Positions 24,009 through 34,301 of a DNA stretch of 64,000 nt are shown here, one piece after another. The position numbers and the translations under genes were made by a program. Source of the DNA: a phage; sequence record PZ179882.1, one strand, 5' to 3'. The notes below the pieces were generated by a model that was not told where the DNA came from, searched no databases, and saw only the letters and a list, made by a program, of their open reading frames with translations. Position 1 is the stretch's first letter, and every line of letters begins with the position of its first letter.

Positions 24009-27000
24009 ATGGCCGAGATTAAAAGAAAGTTCAGAGCAGAAGATGGTCTGGACGCAGGTGGCGATAAAATAATCAACGTAGCTTTAGCTGATCGTACCGT
24101 AGGAACTGACGGTGTCAACGTTGATTACTTAATTCAAGAAAACACAGTTCAACAATATGATCCAACTCGTGGATATTTAAAAGATTTTGTAATCATTTAT
24201 AATAATCGTTTTTGGGCAGCAACGGATAATATTCCAAAACCTGCTGGAAGTTTTAATAGAATTCGTTGGAAAGCATTACGTACTGATGCCGTATATACAA
24301 CCGTATCATCTGGACCATATCAATTAAAATCCGGAGAAGCAATTTCAGTAGATACATCAGTTGGTAATGACATTGAGTTTAATTTACCACCTTCTCCGCT
24401 TGATGGAGAGACCGTAATAATTCAAGATATTGGTGGAAAACCTGGTATAAATCAGGTTAAAATAAATTCTTCAAATCAGAGTATTGTTAATTTTAGAGGT
24501 GAACAGGTACGTTCAGTTCTAATGACTCATCCAAAGTCACAAATGATATTCATTTTTAATAATCGTTTGTGGCAAATGTATGTTGCTGATTATAGCAGAG
24601 AAGCTGCGATTGTTACTCCATCGACTGCATATCAAGCACAATCTAATGATTTTATTGTGCGTAGATTTACTTCCGCTGCGCCGATTAATATTAAACTTCC
24701 GAGATTTGCTAATCATGGCGATATTATTAATTTCGTTGATTTAGATAAATTAAATCCACTTTATCATACAATTGTCACGACATATGATGAAACAACTTCA
24801 GTACAAGAAGTTGGAACTCATTCTATTGAAGGCCGTACATCGATTGACGGTTTCTTGATGTTTGATGATAATGAAAAATTATGGAGATTGTTTGACGGGG
24901 ATAGTAAAGCACGTTTACGCATTATAACAACTAATTCTAATATTCGTCCAAATGAAGAAGTTATGGTATTTGGTGCGAATAACGGAACAGCCCAAACAAT
25001 TGAACTTCAACTTCCAACCGATATTTCCATTGGTGATACTGTTAAAATTTCCATGAATTACATGAGAAAAGGACAAACAGTTAAAATCAAAGCTGCCGGT
25101 GAAGATAAAATTGCTTCTTCAGTTCAATTGCTGCAATTCCCAAAACGTTCAGAATATCCACCTGAAGCTGAATGGGTGACTGTTCAAGAATTAGTTTTTA
25201 ACGGCGAAACCAATTATGTTCCAGTTTTACAACTTGCTTATATAGAAGATTCTGACGGAAAATACTGGGTTGTACAACAAAACGTTCCAACGGTTGAAAG
25301 AGTCGATTCTTTAAATAATTCTACTAGAGCAAGATTAGGCGTAATTGCTTTAGCTACACAAGCTCAAGCTAACGTCGATTTAGAAAATTCTCCACAAAAA
25401 GAATTAGCAATTACACCAGAAACATTAGCTAACCGTACTGCTACAGAAACTCGTAGAGGTATCGCAAGAATAGCAACTACTGCTCAAGTGAATCAGAACA
25501 CCACATTCTCTTTTGCTGATGACCTTATCATCACTCCTAAAAAGCTGAATGAAAGAACTGCTACAGAAACTCGTAGAGGTGTCGCTGAAATTGCTACGCA
25601 GCAAGAAACTAATACAGGTACTGATGATACTACAATCATCACTCCTAAAAAGCTTCAAGCTCGTCAAGGTTCTGAATCATTATCTGGTATTGTAACCTTT
25701 GTATCTACTGCAGGAGCTACTCCAGCTTCTAGTCGTGAATTAAATGGTACAAATGTTTATAATAAAAACACTAATAATTTAGTTGTTTCGCCTAAAGCTT
25801 TGGATCAGTATAAAGCTACTCCAACGCAACAAGGTGCAGTAATTTTAGCAGTTGAAAGTGAAGTAATTGCTGGACAAAGCCAAGAAGGATGGGCAAATGC
25901 GGTTGTAACGCCAGAAACGTTACATAAAAAGACATCAACTGATGCAAGAATTGGTTTAATTGAAATTGCTACACAAAGTGAAGTTAATACAGGAACTGAT
26001 TATACTCGTGCAGTCACTCCGAAAACTTTAAATGACCGTAGAGCAACTGAAAGTTTAAGTGGTATAGCTGAAATTGCTACGCAAGTTGAATTCGACGCAG
26101 GCGTCGACGATACTCGTATCTCTACACCATTAAAAATTAAAACCAGATTTAATAGTACTGATCGTACTTCTGTTGTTGCTCTATCTGGATTAGTTGAATC
26201 AGGAACTCTCTGGGACCATTATACCCTTAATATTCTTGAAGCAAATGAGACACAGCGTGGTACACTTCGTGTAGCTACACAAGTTGAAGCTGCTGCAGGA
26301 ACATTGGATAATGTTCTAATAACTCCTAAAAAGCTTTTAGGTACTAAATCTACTGAAGCACAGGAAGGCGTTATTAAAGTTGCAACTCGGTCTGAAACTG
26401 TAGCTGGAACGTCAGCAAATACTGCTGTATCCCCAAAAAATTTAAAATGGATTGTGCAGAGTGAACCAACTTGGGCAGCTACTACCCTGGTAAGAGGTTT
26501 TGTTAAAACTTCATCTGGTTCAATTACATTCGTTGGTAATGATACAGTTGGTTCTACGCAGGACTTAGAACTATATGAGAAAAATAACTATGCAGTATCA
26601 CCATATGAATTAAACCGCGTATTAGCAAATTATTTGCCGTTAAAAGCAAAAGCTGTAGATAGTAATTTATTAGATGGTTTAGATTCACTCCAGTTCATTC
26701 GTAGGGATATTGCGCAGACGGTTAATGGTTCACTAACCTTAACACAGCAAACGAATCTGAGTGCCCCTCTTGTATCATCTAGTACTGCTACATTTGGTGG
26801 ATCAGTTTCAGCAAATAGTACATTAACTATTTCTAATACTGGAACGGCAACTCGTCTGATTTTTGAGAAAGGACCTCAAACTGGAACAAACCCGGCTCAA
26901 ACGATGACAGTCAGAGTGTGGGGAAATCAATTTAGTGGGGAGTCAGACACAACACGTTCTACTGTATTTGAAGTTAGTGATGAAACTTCTAGTCATTTTT

Positions 27001-27878
27001 ATTCTCAGCGTAATAAAGCTGGTAATATAACATTTAATATCAACGGTACAGTAACACCGATAAATGTGAATGCTTCAGGAACATTGAATGCGAATGGCGT
27101 TGCAACATTTGGTAATTCAGTCACTGCAACTGGTGAAATTATTTCTCGAAGCGCAAATGCTTTCCGTGCTATTAATGGAAATTACGGTTTCATTATTCGT
27201 AATGACGGGTCAGTAACGAATTTTATGCTTACTGCATCAGGCAATCAAACTGGTGGATTTAATGGATTGCGTCCATTGTCCATTAATAATCAATCTGGGC
27301 AGGTCACAATTGGTGAAAGCTTGATCATTGCTAAAGGTGCTACTATAAATTCAGGTGGTTTAACTGTTAACTCGAGAATTCGTTCTCAAGGTGTTAAAAC
27401 ATCTGATTTATATACCCGTGCGCCGACATCTGATACTGTAGGATTCTGGTCAATCGATATTAATGATTCAGCCACTTATAACCAGTTCCCGGGTTATTTT
27501 AAAATGGTTGAAAAAACTAATGAAGTTACTGGACTTCCATACTTAGAACGTGGCGAAGAAGTTAAATCTCCTGGTACATTGACTCAGTTTGGTAACACAC
27601 TTGATTCACTTTACCAAGATTGGATTACTTATCCAACGACTCCAGAAGCACGTACCACTCGCTGGACACGTACATGGCAAAAAACTAAAAACTCTTGGTC
27701 AAGTTTTGTTCAGGTATTTGACGGAGGTAACCCTCCTCAACCTTCAGATATAGGAGCGATCCCATCTGATAATGGAATAATAGGTAATCTTACTATTCGT
27801 GATTTCTTACGAATTGGTAATGTTCGCATTATTCCTGACCCAGTGAATAAAACTGTTAAATTTGAATGGGTTGAATAA
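24009..27878 (+). CDS. 34: long tail fiber proximal subunit gp34, 1289 aa
   Basis: 1289-aa plus-strand ORF; internal repeats (…TETRRGxAxIATxxExNxGTDxTxxITPKKL…); matches T4 gp34 length and sequence. Confidence 0.95.
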   Translation: MAEIKRKFRAEDGLDAGGDKIINVALADRTVGTDGVNVDYLIQENTVQQYDPTRGYLKDFVIIYNNRFWAATDNIPKPAGSFNRIRWKALRTDAVYTTVSSGPYQLKSGEAISVDTSVGNDIEFNLPPSPLDGETVIIQDIGGKPGINQVKINSSNQSIVNFRGEQVRSVLMTHPKSQMIFIFNNRLWQMYVADYSREAAIVTPSTAYQAQSNDFIVRRFTSAAPINIKLPRFANHGDIINFVDLDKLNPLYHTIVTTYDETTSVQEVGTHSIEGRTSIDGFLMFDDNEKLWRLFDGDSKARLRIITTNSNIRPNEEVMVFGANNGTAQTIELQLPTDISIGDTVKISMNYMRKGQTVKIKAAGEDKIASSVQLLQFPKRSEYPPEAEWVTVQELVFNGETNYVPVLQLAYIEDSDGKYWVVQQNVPTVERVDSLNNSTRARLGVIALATQAQANVDLENSPQKELAITPETLANRTATETRRGIARIATTAQVNQNTTFSFADDLIITPKKLNERTATETRRGVAEIATQQETNTGTDDTTIITPKKLQARQGSESLSGIVTFVSTAGATPASSRELNGTNVYNKNTNNLVVSPKALDQYKATPTQQGAVILAVESEVIAGQSQEGWANAVVTPETLHKKTSTDARIGLIEIATQSEVNTGTDYTRAVTPKTLNDRRATESLSGIAEIATQVEFDAGVDDTRISTPLKIKTRFNSTDRTSVVALSGLVESGTLWDHYTLNILEANETQRGTLRVATQVEAAAGTLDNVLITPKKLLGTKSTEAQEGVIKVATRSETVAGTSANTAVSPKNLKWIVQSEPTWAATTLVRGFVKTSSGSITFVGNDTVGSTQDLELYEKNNYAVSPYELNRVLANYLPLKAKAVDSNLLDGLDSLQFIRRDIAQTVNGSLTLTQQTNLSAPLVSSSTATFGGSVSANSTLTISNTGTATRLIFEKGPQTGTNPAQTMTVRVWGNQFSGESDTTRSTVFEVSDETSSHFYSQRNKAGNITFNINGTVTPINVNASGTLNANGVATFGNSVTATGEIISRSANAFRAINGNYGFIIRNDGSVTNFMLTASGNQTGGFNGLRPLSINNQSGQVTIGESLIIAKGATINSGGLTVNSRIRSQGVKTSDLYTRAPTSDTVGFWSIDINDSATYNQFPGYFKMVEKTNEVTGLPYLERGEEVKSPGTLTQFGNTLDSLYQDWITYPTTPEARTTRWTRTWQKTKNSWSSFVQVFDGGNPPQPSDIGAIPSDNGIIGNLTIRDFLRIGNVRIIPDPVNKTVKFEWVE

Positions 27879-27886
27879 GAGGTATT

Positions 27887-29002
27887 ATGGAAAAATTTAT
27901 GGCAGAGTTTGGACAAGGATATGTCCAAACGCCATTTTTATCGGAAAGCAATTCAGTAAGATATAAAATAAGCATAGCGGGCTCTTGCCCGCTTTCTACT
28001 GCAGGGCCATATGTTAAATTTCAGGATAATCCCGTTGGAAATCAAACATTTAGTGCAGGTCTTCATTTAAGAGTTTTTGACCCTTCTACGGGAGCATTAG
28101 TTGATAGTAAGTCATATGCTTTTTCTGCTTCAAACAATACAACATCTGCCGCTTTTGTCAGTTTTATGAATTCTTTGTCAAACAATAGACTTGTTGCTAT
28201 ATTAACTAGCGGAAAGGTTAATTTTCCTCCTGAAGTGGTATCTTGGTTAAGGGGAGCAGGAACTTCAGTTTTTCCATCAGATTCAGTATTGTCAAGATTT
28301 GACGTATCATATGCTGCTTTTTATACTTCTTCTAAAAGAGCTATTGCATTAGAGCATGTTAAACTAAGTAATAGAAAAAGCACAGATGATTATCAAACTA
28401 TTTTAGATGTTGTATTTGATAGTTTAGAAGACGTCGGAGCTACGGGATTTCCTAAAAGAACATATGAAAGTGTCGAGCAATTTATGTCAGCGGTTGGTGG
28501 AACTAACAACGAAATTGCGCGATTGCCAACTTCAGCTGCTATAAGTAAACTATCTGATTATAATTTAATTCCTGGTGATGTTCTTTATCTTAAAGCACAG
28601 TTATATGCTGATGCTGATTTACTTGATCTTGGAACTACAAATATATCTATCCGTTTTTATAATGCATCAAATGGATATATTTCTTCAACACAGGCTGAGT
28701 TTACTGGGCAAGCTGGATCTTGGGAATTAAAGGAAGATTATGTAGTTGTTCCTGAAAATGCAGTCGGATTTACTATATATGCGCAGAGAACTGCTCAAGC
28801 TGGTCAAGGCGGAATGAGGAATTTAAGCTTTTCTGAAGTATCAAGAAATGGCGGCATTTCAAAACCTGCCGAATTTGGCGTCAACGGTATTCGTGTTAAT
28901 TATGTCTGTGAATCGGCTTCACCTCCAGATATAATGGTACTTCCTACACAAGCCTCTTCTAAAACTGGCAAAGTGTTTGGGCAAGAATTTAGAGAAGTTT
29001 AA
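27887..29002 (+). CDS. 35: long tail fiber hinge connector gp35, 371 aa
   Basis: Follows gene 34 by 8 nt; size matches T4 gp35. Confidence 0.9.
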   Translation: MEKFMAEFGQGYVQTPFLSESNSVRYKISIAGSCPLSTAGPYVKFQDNPVGNQTFSAGLHLRVFDPSTGALVDSKSYAFSASNNTTSAAFVSFMNSLSNNRLVAILTSGKVNFPPEVVSWLRGAGTSVFPSDSVLSRFDVSYAAFYTSSKRAIALEHVKLSNRKSTDDYQTILDVVFDSLEDVGATGFPKRTYESVEQFMSAVGGTNNEIARLPTSAAISKLSDYNLIPGDVLYLKAQLYADADLLDLGTTNISIRFYNASNGYISSTQAEFTGQAGSWELKEDYVVVPENAVGFTIYAQRTAQAGQGGMRNLSFSEVSRNGGISKPAEFGVNGIRVNYVCESASPPDIMVLPTQASSKTGKVFGQEFREV

Positions 29003-29064: not shown

Positions 29065-29715
29065 ATGGCTGATTTAAAAGTAGGTTCAACTGTGGGTGGA
29101 TCTGTCATTTGGCATCAAGGAAATTTTCCATTGAATTCAGCCGGTGACGATGTACTCTACAAATCATTTAAAATATATTCAGAATATAATAAACCACAGG
29201 CAGCTGATAACGATTTCGTTTCTAAAGCTAATGGTGGTACTTACACCGGTCCAATTACTATTAATTACGGGGTAAATAGTTATCTTCAATTAAGTAATAA
29301 TGAAACCCCCATTCGAATTCGTTCTGGTGGCGGTACCGGCAATACTCTTGTAGTTGGCGGCTCTTCTGGCGGTATTAGTTTTAGACCTGCAGGTAGTGAA
29401 ATCACTACTGGACAAATTACTATTACGCCAGAAGGTTTGACAACATTTACCAGGGCTGTAACGGCTCCATCTGTAACTGTTACATCTACTCCTTCAGCAG
29501 CATCTGATGTTACTCGTAAAGATTATGTCGATGGAGCAATAAATACTGTTACGGCAAATGCGAATTCTAGAGTTTTGCGTAAAGGTGACACCATGACAGG
29601 TAATTTAACAGCGCCAAACTTTTTCTCGCAGAATCCTGCATCTCAACCCTCGCATGTTCCACGATTTGACCAAATCGTAATTAAGGATTCTGTTCAAGAT
29701 TTCGGCTATTATTAA
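29065..29715 (+). CDS. 36: long tail fiber distal connector gp36, 216 aa
   Basis: Position and size match T4 gp36. Confidence 0.9.
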
Positions 29716-29723
29716 GAGGACTT

Positions 29724-32700
29724 ATGGCTACTTTAAAACAAATACAATTTAAAAGAAGCAAAACCGCAGGTCAACTTCCTGCTGCTTCAGTATTAGCCGA
29801 AGGTGAATTGGCTATTAATTTAAAAGATAAAACAATTTTCACAAAAGATGACTCAGGCAATGTTATAGAATTAGGTTTAAAATATGGAGGAACAATTGAT
29901 GGTTCTTTAACTGTTAATGGAAATATAATTGGAAATTTAACAGGTAACGCTGCAACTGCAACGAAATTAAAAACAGCACGAAAAATTAATGGTATATCAT
30001 TTGATGGGTCAAAAGATATCACGCTAACTCCATCTGACATAAATGTCAATAGCACAACGTTTATAAAAAATAACGGCGAATTACCGGTTGATGCTAATTT
30101 AGATGAGTATGGGCCTGTTGAAGAATATCTTGGGGTTTGGTCGAAATCTACTTCAACAAATGCGCAACCGGCAAATAAATTCCCAGAAGAAAATGCCGTA
30201 GGTGTACTAGAAGTATTTGTGGCCGGTCAATTTGCTGGTACTCAGAGATATACTGTAAGATCTGGTAACGTATATGTTCGATCTTTGTCTGCTAAATGGA
30301 ACGGTGTTAACGGTCCGTGGGGAGTTTGGCGTAATGTTCAAGCGTCAACTCGTCCACTTTCACAAACGATTGACCTTGATAGTTTGGGAGAATTAGAACA
30401 TTGCGGCTTATGGCGAAATAGTTCAAGTGCTATTGCATCGTTTGATCGCCATTATCCAGAAGAAGGATCAGCCGCACAAGGATTTTTAGAAATATTTGAA
30501 GGTGGTTTATACGCGAGAACTCAGCGTTATACAACTAGATCTGGTGTTGTTTATACTCGCTGTCTTGCTGCTGCATGGGATGCATCTGCGCCTAAATGGG
30601 GACCGTGGCAACAAGTCGGTAATGTCACACCAGCGACTTTCTATGACGGAAACCTGAATGATTTTAAAACTCCTGGGTTATATAATATTTTAGGCACTGA
30701 TGCCGTTATTAATTGTCCTACAGGCGAAGGTTTACCAGCCGTTATTGTTGGTTTGCTGGAAGTTAAACAGCGTGCTTCTGGTGGTGCTATTTTCCAAAAA
30801 TTTACTACTGCCGGAACGGGAACTACTACCCGTGGTCGTATTTTTGAGCGTGCATATACTGGTGGTGCGTGGGGTACATGGAACGAAGTATATACATCTT
30901 ACTCTCTGCCAATTACTTTGGGTATGGGCGAGCGTGCAATTGAACTTACTTCTATGGATTGGCAACAACAAGAATTTCTTTCTGGTGGGATCTATAGCGT
31001 CGGTGCTAAGGATATGACAAACACGCCAAGTGGGATGACCTTTGCTGATGTTGCTGTTTATATCTCCGTTATTGGTCGTTCTGGTAGTGCTTTAGAATTA
31101 AGCGTAATACCACGCACGTCAAATGATAAAAACTATCATTGTTATAATGTTAGGAGTACTGGTGCTAAAGGATCTCGAACGTTTTATGTAAGGAAGTTTG
31201 CAACCACGTCTACCCAACACACATGGACAGCACAGCAAGATTTTAATGGCGCAGTTAACTTCGGTGCTCCTACCAATTTTAACTCTACTGTTAACCTTAA
31301 TAACACTACCACTTTTAAAACAGAAGTTAAATTTCGCTCATCTAATGCATTCCGTATGTATGGCAGAAAATTTGGTACAATTTTCCGTAATGATGGAGAG
31401 AGTCTTTATATTCTTTCTACCGACGAAGATGACCAAGATGGAAACTTTAATACAAATAGACCTTTCCGTTATGAATTAAGAACTGGCGATGTTACTTTAG
31501 GTGGTGCTAGTGGTGCTAACGTTTTAAAATTAGAACGTAGTTCGCTTGCTGCCACCTTTGGTGGTGATGTTAACTTAAATAAAGGTACACTGACGTTTGA
31601 AGCTGGTCGCTTAAACTCCCGCGATTATTTTAAATTTAACCATTGGGGTGATAGTAATAATGCTCGTGATAACATCATCCAGTTAGAAGATAGTCAAGGC
31701 GCCCATTTTTCCACTGAACGTACTTTAGCGACAGGTGCAATTAAAACTCGTTTCTTTGGCGAAACATTCACTGATGGTACATTATACCTAAATCAGATGA
31801 ATAATAGCTCTGAACGATTCTCTATTAATAATTGGGGAAATTCAGAAGTTGGTCGCGCGGCAGTGATGGAAGTCAGTGATTCCAAAGGTTATCACTTCCA
31901 TACGGAACGCAGGACAGATAACAGTTTGAATTTTGATGTTGCTGGCAATTTTACTGCGCATGGACCTTCCGGAATAACCATCAAAAACTCAACTGGTGCA
32001 CGACATATCTGGTTTAGAGATGATAGCGATGCAGAAAAGGCTGTTATCTGGGCTACAGATGAGGGTATTTTACATATTCGCAATAATCATGGGGGTTCAT
32101 TTAGTCATCACTTCCAGGGTGCAATGATTAAAGCGGGAGAGCGTGTTCCATATAATGGTGAATACGCTCTTATCCGTGGTGATATTTCAGGTGGTGCATG
32201 GGTAGACTGGCGAGAGCGTCCGGCTGGATTGTTGGTAGACTGTCAGGACTCACGAAATCAAGCATATAACATTTGGAAAGCTACTCATTGGGGCGAACAG
32301 CACCTTGCGGCGATGGGTGTTCATGCTGACGGTGGTAATCCTCGTGTTGTATTGCATGTGGGTGGGAATGATTATGCATTTGCATTTAACGGTGATTTTA
32401 CTGCTGGTGCTGCTGTATATTGTAACGACGTTTATATTCGTTCTGACCGTCGTCTGAAAATTAATGTTGAAGACTACGAAGAGAATGCGGTGGATAAGGT
32501 AAATAAACTCAAAGTTAAAACCTATGATAAAGTTAAATCTCTTTCTGACCGCGAAGTTATCGGCCATGAGATTGGTATTATCGCACAGGATTTGCAAGAA
32601 GTATTACCGGAAGCTGTTAGCACTTCTAGTGTCGGATCTCAGGATAACCCAGAAGAAATTTTAACAATTTCAAACTCTGCTGTGAACGCGCTTTTAATTA

Positions 32701-32795
32701 AGGCCATTCAGGAAATGAGCGAAGAAATTAAAGAATTGAAAACGCCTCTCTTTACTAAAATTGCTCGCAAAATTAGTAAATATTTTAAATTCTAA
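29724..32795 (+). CDS. 37: long tail fiber distal subunit gp37, 1023 aa, with C-terminal self-cleaving intramolecular chaperone domain
   Basis: Large fibre protein; C-terminal 117 aa from [13 protein letters not shown]…[16 protein letters not shown] resemble Peptidase_S74 chaperone domain. Confidence 0.93.
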
Positions 32796-32801
32796 CAACA
32801 A

Positions 32802-32819
32802 GGGGGAAATGCCCCCTTT
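32802..32819 (+). other. GGGGG-loop-CCCCC hairpin between genes 37 and 38
   Basis: 5-bp G/C stem with weak U-tract; possible attenuator. Confidence 0.35.
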
Positions 32820-32831
32820 GGAGTATAAATT

Positions 32832-33614
32832 ATGGCAGTAGTTGGAGTTCCTGGCTGGATTGGAAGTTCAGCCGTAAATGAAACGGGCCAGCGCTGGATG
32901 AGTCAAGCGGCTGGTCAATTAAGATTAGGTGTTCCTTGCTGGATGAGTCAATTTGCAGGTCGCTCAAGAGAAATTATTCATACACTTGGAGCAGATCATA
33001 ACTTCAATGGTCAATGGTTCCGAGATAGGTGTTTTGAGGCAGGTAGTACACCTATAGTGTTTAATATCACTGGAGATTTAGTATCATATTCTAAAGATGT
33101 TCCTTTATTCTTCATGTACGGAGATACACCGAATGAATATGTTCAACTGAATATACATGGTGTAACGATGTATGGCCGTGGCGGGAATGGCGGTAGCAAT
33201 AGTCCTGGCTCAGCTGGGGGTCATTGTATTCAAAATGATATTGGTGGGAGACTAAGAATTAATAATGGCGGAGCTATTGCTGGCGGTGGCGGTGGCGGTG
33301 GCGGCGGATATTATTCTCCTTTTTCACAAATGAGATTGACCTTTGGCGGTGGCGGCGGTCGTCCGTTTGGCGCTCCGGGCGGATCTATTGATATGCAATC
33401 AGGAGCAACTGCTGGTACTATTTCTGCGCCTGGCGCAGGGTCTGTGAACGGTATCTACAACGGCGGGTCTGGTGGTGAAGTTGGCTCCGCAGGAGGTAGA
33501 TGTAATATTCGTGGTCAAGGATATGAATACGATGGCGGAGCTGCTGGTTATGCCGTCATAGGGTCTACACCGACATGGCAAAACGTTGGAGCAATATATG
33601 GTCCAAGAGTATAA
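32832..33614 (+). CDS. 38: gp38 receptor-recognising adhesin of the T2 type (glycine-rich motifs), 260 aa
   Basis: Multiple poly-Gly motifs ([24 protein letters not shown]) separating short variable segments; unlike the 183-aa T4 gp38 chaperone. Confidence 0.88.
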
Positions 33615-33644: not shown

Positions 33645-34301
33645 ATGGCAGCACCTAGAATATCATTTTCGCCCTCTGATATTCTGTTTGGTGTTCTAGA
33701 TCGCTTGTTCAAAGATAATGCTACCGGGGAAGTTCTTGCTTCCAGGGTAGCTGTCGTAATTCTTTTGTTTATAATGGCGATTGTTTGGTATAGGGGAGAT
33801 AGTTTCTTTGAGTACTATAAGCAATCAAAGTATGAAACATACAGTGAAATTATTGAAAAGGAAAGAAATGCACGCTTTGAATCTGTCGCCCTGGAACAAC
33901 TCCAGATAGTTCATATATCATCTGAGGCAGACTTTAGTGCGGTGTATTCTTTCCGCCCTAAAAACTTAAACTATTTTGTTGATATTATAGCATATGAAGG
34001 AAAATTACCTTCAACAATAAGTGAAAAAACACTTGGAGGATATCCTGTTGATAAAACTATGGATGAATATGCAGTTCATTTAAATGGACGTCATTATTAT
34101 TCCAACTCAAAATTTGCTTTTTTACCAACTAAAAAGCCTACTCCCGAAATAAACTACATGTACAGTTGTCCATATTTCAATTTGGATAATATCTATGCTG
34201 GAACAATAACCATGTACTGGTATAGAAATGATCATATAAGTAATGACCGCCTTGAATCAATATGTTCTCAGGCGGCCAGAATATTAGGAAGGGCTAAATA
34301 A
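33645..34301 (+). CDS. t: holin t, 218 aa
   Basis: MAAPRISFSPSDILFGVLDRLF…, single TM segment then large periplasmic domain; matches T4 holin. Confidence 0.93.
   Translation: MAAPRISFSPSDILFGVLDRLFKDNATGEVLASRVAVVILLFIMAIVWYRGDSFFEYYKQSKYETYSEIIEKERNARFESVALEQLQIVHISSEADFSAVYSFRPKNLNYFVDIIAYEGKLPSTISEKTLGGYPVDKTMDEYAVHLNGRHYYSNSKFAFLPTKKPTPEINYMYSCPYFNLDNIYAGTITMYWYRNDHISNDRLESICSQAARILGRAK

Follow-up and report, generated by a model that had tools for sequence, protein, structure and literature searches.

The phage DNA analyzed here (sequence record PZ179882.1, 64,000 nucleotides in full, hereafter the window) contains a long tail fiber block of typical T-even organization, with the gene order g34-g35-g36-g37-g38 followed by an ORF in the position of t (Table 1). 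Over approximately 24 kb around the fiber locus, identity to several Tequatrovirus genomes (OES_C-1, vB_YepM_ZN18 and YUEEL01 among them) is 95-96.5%. The gp37 fiber shaft is a mosaic, the best match to the g37-g38 DNA having 95.5% identity over 93% of the query. The source phage is a T2-type Tequatrovirus. Its gp37 belongs to PHROG 1699 ('long tail fiber protein distal subunit', E=7.6e-165), and residues 108-325 are additionally matched by PHROG 4618 ('tail collar fiber protein'). Neither gp37 nor gp38 had a match in NCBIfam, which is uninformative, since this library is aimed at cellular proteins.

Table 1. Genes of the long tail fiber block and features of gp37, with their positions in the window
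Feature	Coordinates	Strand	Remarks
g34	24009-27878	+	1289 aa
g35	27887-29002	+	371 aa
g36	29065-29715	+	216 aa
g37	29724-32795	+	1023 aa, ORF without interruption
Predicted mature gp37	29724-32441	+	residues 1-906, 99.0 kDa, final strand DVYIR (902-906)
GAHFSTERT motif	31698-31724	+	residues 659-667, in gp34-like repeat module
GYHFHTERR motif	31887-31913	+	residues 722-730, in gp34-like repeat module
Predicted scissile bond Arg906-Ser907	32439-32444	+	from alignment with T2, S16, T5 pb1 and K1F endosialidase
C-terminal intramolecular chaperone (Peptidase_S74) domain	32442-32795	+	gp37 residues 907-1023 (117 aa, 13.2 kDa) and stop codon
Lys912, predicted general base	32457-32459	+	5 residues past Ser907, aligns with Lys1269 of T5 pb1
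G-I-I-A-Q motif	32574-32588	+	residues 951-955, conserved S74 core
Long C-terminal helix	32673-32783	+	residues 984-1020, from AlphaFold model by DSSP, includes basic tail
g38	32832-33614	+	260 aa
218-aa ORF	33645-34301	+	sits where T2 and S16 have their annotated t holin gene

The C-terminus of gp37 is a Peptidase_S74 (intramolecular chaperone) domain according to four independent tests, namely a profile HMM, a match to a solved structure, a catalytic residue pair and its predicted fold. The first-pass annotation had described the last 117 residues as Peptidase_S74-like, quoting two peptides that are indeed present (residues 907-920 and 950-965), and had proposed an HMM search with Pfam PF13884 as a check. 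This search gave a significant match to residues 907-965 (profile positions 1-57 of 58), with E=1.2e-14 and 54.7 bits for the whole of gp37, and E=5.4e-16 and 59.1 bits for the 117-aa piece alone, compared to a gathering cutoff of 22. On these scores, the similarity is far beyond chance. Codon 907 begins at 32442, and the TAA stop codon occupies 32793-32795.

Among proteins of known structure, phmmer identified gp37 of Salmonella phage S16 (6F45_A, E=1.7e-11). In this alignment, SDRRLK lies opposite SDRRIK, and GIIAQ opposite GLIAQ. A PDB sequence search with the gp37 C-terminus also returned the MyRF ICA (7DC3, E=0.012) and the fiber 8JOV. The GIIAQ core is kept in S16, T2, K1F and MyRF, and only the Ala differs in T5 pb1 (GLTVQ). 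Gly951, Ile953, Ala954 and Gln955 were invariant in an alignment with 26 database homologues (alignment A1, columns G79, I81, A82 and Q83). A large protein search yielded 30 relatives only, mostly fragments, which suffices for conservation and for a usable model rather than for a broad survey. Wider distribution was apparent from phage data. The domain matched 36 PHROG families. In each of the 25 that were listed, it aligned with the extreme C-terminus, and 21 of these 25 are annotated as tail, fiber or baseplate proteins. Matches by tblastn came from 1696 phage records, ranging from T-even and T5-like phages to PblB proteins of pneumococcal prophages. To judge by these alignments, the S74 domain is a modular unit.

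An AlphaFold2 model of a monomer comprising residues 873-1023 (151 aa) had a mean pLDDT of 83.7. Values mostly exceeded 90 in the domain core and fell at the very end of gp37. The model predicts an alpha/beta unit that is followed by the long C-terminal helix (DSSP helix 112-148 of the query). Foldseek found three PDB entries only at E<0.1, namely 7DC3, 3GUD and 3GW6. The best match was the MyRF ICA 7DC3 (E=6e-6, TM 0.59-0.65), and the other two are entries titled intramolecular chaperone. In T5 pb1 and in K1F, three chaperone domains form a central coiled coil and assist the folding of the preceding trimeric beta-structure (PMC4690869). The coiled coil of the T5 chaperone is the counterpart of gp37 helix 984-1020. 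In the model, this helix is the predicted stalk of what may be a trimeric coiled coil, and by analogy a chaperone function would be expected for the gp37 domain as well.

The catalytic residues are conserved. In a five-way alignment, Ser907 and Lys912 of gp37 correspond to S1243 and K1248 of T2, S638 and K643 of S16, S1264 and K1269 of T5, and to the Ser/Lys pair of the K1F endosialidase. Lys912 was invariant in the 26 homologues (alignment A1, column K40), and Ser907 and Asp908 were found in at least 90%. In T5 pb1 and K1F, the Ser is activated by the Lys at position +5, cuts the bond directly before itself and leaves together with the chaperone (PMC4690869). The scissile bond of T5 pb1 is Thr1263-Ser1264, and the S1264A exchange blocks cleavage (PMC4690869). 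An Arg of a neighboring chain and an Asp upstream of the site act as a folding sensor in K1F and T5, so that only the correct trimer is cleaved (PMC4690869). S16 gp37 removes its own last 113 residues at DLNVS^SDRRIKK (the caret marks the site) and thereby exposes the docking surface for gp38 (PMC7917993).

The equivalent junction reads DVYIR^SDRRLKI in the window and NVYIR^SDIRLK in T2. Arg occupies P1 in these two proteins, whereas S16 has Ser at this position and both T5 and K1F have Thr. For the variant with Arg at P1, the evidence for processing comes from older work on T2 and T6, which is mentioned in the relevant part of a review with no site quoted (PMC3157838). For gp37 of the source phage, processing is likely by analogy with these homologues, and cleavage is expected N-terminal to Ser907, at the bond that follows Arg906. 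Ser907 would depart with the chaperone because the scissile bond lies on its N-terminal side, as in T5 pb1 and S16. The predicted masses are 112.2 kDa for the precursor, 99.0 kDa for the mature protein (906 aa) and 13.2 kDa for the fragment. The mature length of 906 aa given in the first-pass annotation is therefore in agreement with homology, but its placement of the cut after the Ser is not, as the expected position is before Ser907.

The gene directly downstream of g37 encodes an adhesin-type gp38 (Pfam GP38, E=2e-71; Gp38_N, E=1.2e-20) and not, according to Pfam, of the T4 chaperone type. W9, W22 and W37, together with the glycine-rich motifs, do not vary between gp38 of the window and gp38 of T2 and S16. 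In S16, a single gp38 docks through its N-terminal helical bundle using three conserved tryptophans (PMC7917993, PMC6851490). For T2 and T6, the same part of the review (PMC3157838, citing Drexler et al. 1986) states that gp37 is proteolytically processed and then capped by gp38. The earlier suggestion that the fiber tip is capped by gp38 is in line with the Pfam assignment of the adjoining gene product as an adhesin of the T2/S16 type and with its three conserved tryptophans, and gp38 of the source phage would probably cap the processed gp37 trimer in the same way.

We consider it highly probable that gp37 is a precursor with an S74 chaperone, which cleaves itself at Arg906-Ser907 and is then capped by gp38. 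It is very unlikely that the chaperone fold, although genuine, is kept on the mature fiber, with gp38 binding to the chaperone or elsewhere. Cleavage in the source phage is deduced from homologues, and a retained domain would suit the basic tail (residues 1007-1023), which reaches past the ends of T2 gp37 and of many homologues. However, the Ser907/Lys912 pair is intact and conserved, the docking surface for gp38 in S16 becomes exposed only upon chaperone removal (PMC7917993), and gp37 of T2 and T6 is known to be processed, as the review says in the part cited (PMC3157838). Moreover, the N-terminal attachment domain and the Trp prongs are both retained in gp38 of the window.

Cleavage might also be the work of a separate host or phage protease that removes the C-terminal piece, with the domain acting as a trimerization module only. 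The cited part of the review is compatible with this, as it describes gp37 of T2 and T6 as 'proteolytically cleaved' and gives no mechanism (PMC3157838). We nevertheless regard a separate protease as extremely doubtful, since recombinant domains of the K1F endosialidase, T5 pb1 and S16 cleave themselves and Ser-to-Ala exchange blocks the reaction (PMC7917993, PMC4690869), and the same Ser/Lys pair is conserved in gp37.

The first-pass annotation had also pointed to repeated His-containing motifs near the tip of gp37. Both motifs exist, but upstream of 32442-32795, at a distance of 177-248 residues from the predicted mature C-terminus. The more distal one, GYHFHTERR, aligns with T4 gp34 '...DTSHHFYSQRNKDG', including its 'SHHFYSQRN' segment (4UXE, 5NXF). 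BLASTP of gp37 against gp34 of the window detected similarity between residues 460-593 and gp34 984-1102 (E=6e-12), between residues 694-790 and gp34 961-1060 (E=1.5e-6), and between residues 606-669 and gp34 923-1004 (E=4e-4). Pfam Gp34_trimer matches gp37 484-582. We note that a module similar to the gp34 C-terminal region thus occurs up to three times in gp37 (gp37 460-790, 31101-32093; gp34 923-1102, 26775-27314). The His motifs sit in the distal two of these copies, at 606-669 and 694-790. A BLASTP comparison of gp37 with itself identified no internal repeats at E<=1, and the repeat relationship of the His modules is visible only through their common similarity to gp34. In addition, three diverged tandem copies of a segment of about 50 residues can be seen by eye in the translation at gp37 ~145-395 (30150-30900), where the BLASTP self-comparison is silent as well.

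A role of the motifs as T4-like iron or metal sites was considered and rejected. PDB sequence matches for gp37 693-1023 were to gp34, S16 gp37, MyRF and 8JOV, with no T4 gp37 chain among them, and neither needle homology nor repeated HxH, as in a T4-type tip, was found. That the motifs form a T4-like metal-binding needle at a tip that itself binds the receptor has next to no probability, despite an HFH triplet (residues 724-726) and a similar HF motif (residues 661-662), because the whole of gp37 has a single HxH and no solved T4 gp37 tip chain was matched by sequence at E<=1; in addition, the motifs align with a module of gp34, a protein that is no receptor-binding tip, and the neighboring gene encodes a gp38 adhesin of the T2 type.

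The DNA of the chaperone domain (354 nt) is 100% identical to that of vB_EcoM_SQ17 and 97-99% identical to that of several other deposited phages. Many T-even phages match only the final 132 nt (nt 223-354, residues 980-1023) at 91-97%, and the first 220 nt diverge. In comparison with RB14, identity is 42-75% across 32433-32702, versus 93-100% from ~32673 onward, in a stretch that takes in the stop codon, the spacer and the 5' end of g38. There is a sharp mosaic boundary within the chaperone domain (32660-32880), and the conserved stretch resembles a linker for swapping adhesin modules by recombination. Judging from the alignments, the chaperone mosaic would fit the known recombination-driven shuffling at the g37/g38 junction.

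The basic tail of gp37 (32742-32792) is amphipathic and was found in the window, in RB14 and in two homologues from the database. T2 gp37 and many other homologues lack it and terminate in a short coiled-coil-like sequence (for example, AELKATK). A spacer of 36 nt separates g37 from g38 and contains a G+C-rich hairpin, GGGGAAATGCCCCC, at 32803-32816. The terminator scan made a single call of an intrinsic terminator in the spacer, for this hairpin on the minus strand. Read on the plus strand, the hairpin is followed by TTT only, and then by GGAG and the g38 start codon. TATAAAT directly before the g38 start was considered as a late promoter and discarded, since it abuts the ATG and could not serve g38. 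One may speculate that the last 44 codons of the chaperone with the basic tail, the spacer with its hairpin and the start of g38 form a single ultra-conserved cassette that does more than complete the coiled coil, either as a recombination linker for adhesin swaps or with the tail handing the fresh tip over to gp38. We think that this is unlikely.

For the self-cleaving precursor, the following sequence of events can be proposed. gp37 would be synthesized as a 1023-aa (112 kDa) protein, the final 117 residues of which are the Peptidase_S74 chaperone. The C-terminal helices would associate three chaperone domains, providing nucleation and register as the trimeric beta-helical tip folds. After correct folding of the tip, Lys912 would activate Ser907 for its attack on the Arg906-Ser907 bond. 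The 13-kDa chaperone, including Ser907, would then be released and leave a flat trimeric end of DVYIR strands exposed. On this end, a single gp38 molecule would dock with its N-terminal helical bundle, via three conserved tryptophans.

The domain, the cleavage site and their role have already been described for near-identical proteins, the feature being known from T2, T6, S16 and relatives, and there is nothing new in kind about it. The significance of the assignment goes little beyond correct annotation. In practice, fiber engineering or mass-mapping should expect a 99-kDa mature gp37 that ends with Arg906, and a released 13-kDa fragment that is missing from virions, and recombinant fiber or gp38-swap constructs must keep the chaperone domain.

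Among known systems, the T2/T6/fPS group has the same architecture, with a gp37 that carries a C-terminal chaperone, followed by a gp38 adhesin. The chaperone has 99 aa in T2 versus 117 aa here, and is longer here because of the extra basic tail. In the fPS phages, which are also Tequatroviruses, the predicted cleavage sequence is DVYIR^SDGRLKI (PMC7917993). DVYIR is identical to the sequence in the window, and the one difference is at the third chaperone residue, which is R here versus G in these phages.

The S16 fiber (6F45, Dunne et al. 2018) is homologous in the C-terminal region, and the SDRR(I/L)K cleavage motif is common to both proteins. Its gp38 is ~51% identical to gp38 of the window, with conserved Trp prongs and glycine-rich motifs. 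S16 differs in the residues before the cleavage site (DLNVS versus DVYIR), in the length of the fiber, which is shorter (749 aa), and in its genus, Gelderlandvirus.

The K1F endosialidase (3GW6), the GA-1 neck appendage (3GUD) and T5 pb1 belong to the same Pfam family as the gp37 domain, and have in common with it the Ser and the Lys at +5, the core of G-hydrophobic-hydrophobic-A/V-Q and the terminal helix. The gp37 domain is much more compact, without the long insertions of K1F and T5 (beta-hairpin 'tentacles' in T5). In K1F, GA-1 and T5, the end exposed by cleavage is the functional tip, whereas the end of gp37 would recruit a separate adhesin. The MyRF ICA (7DC3), the best structural match to the gp37 chaperone and detectable by sequence too, is part of a eukaryotic membrane-bound transcription factor. 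There, cleavage frees the transcription factor and does not serve fiber maturation.
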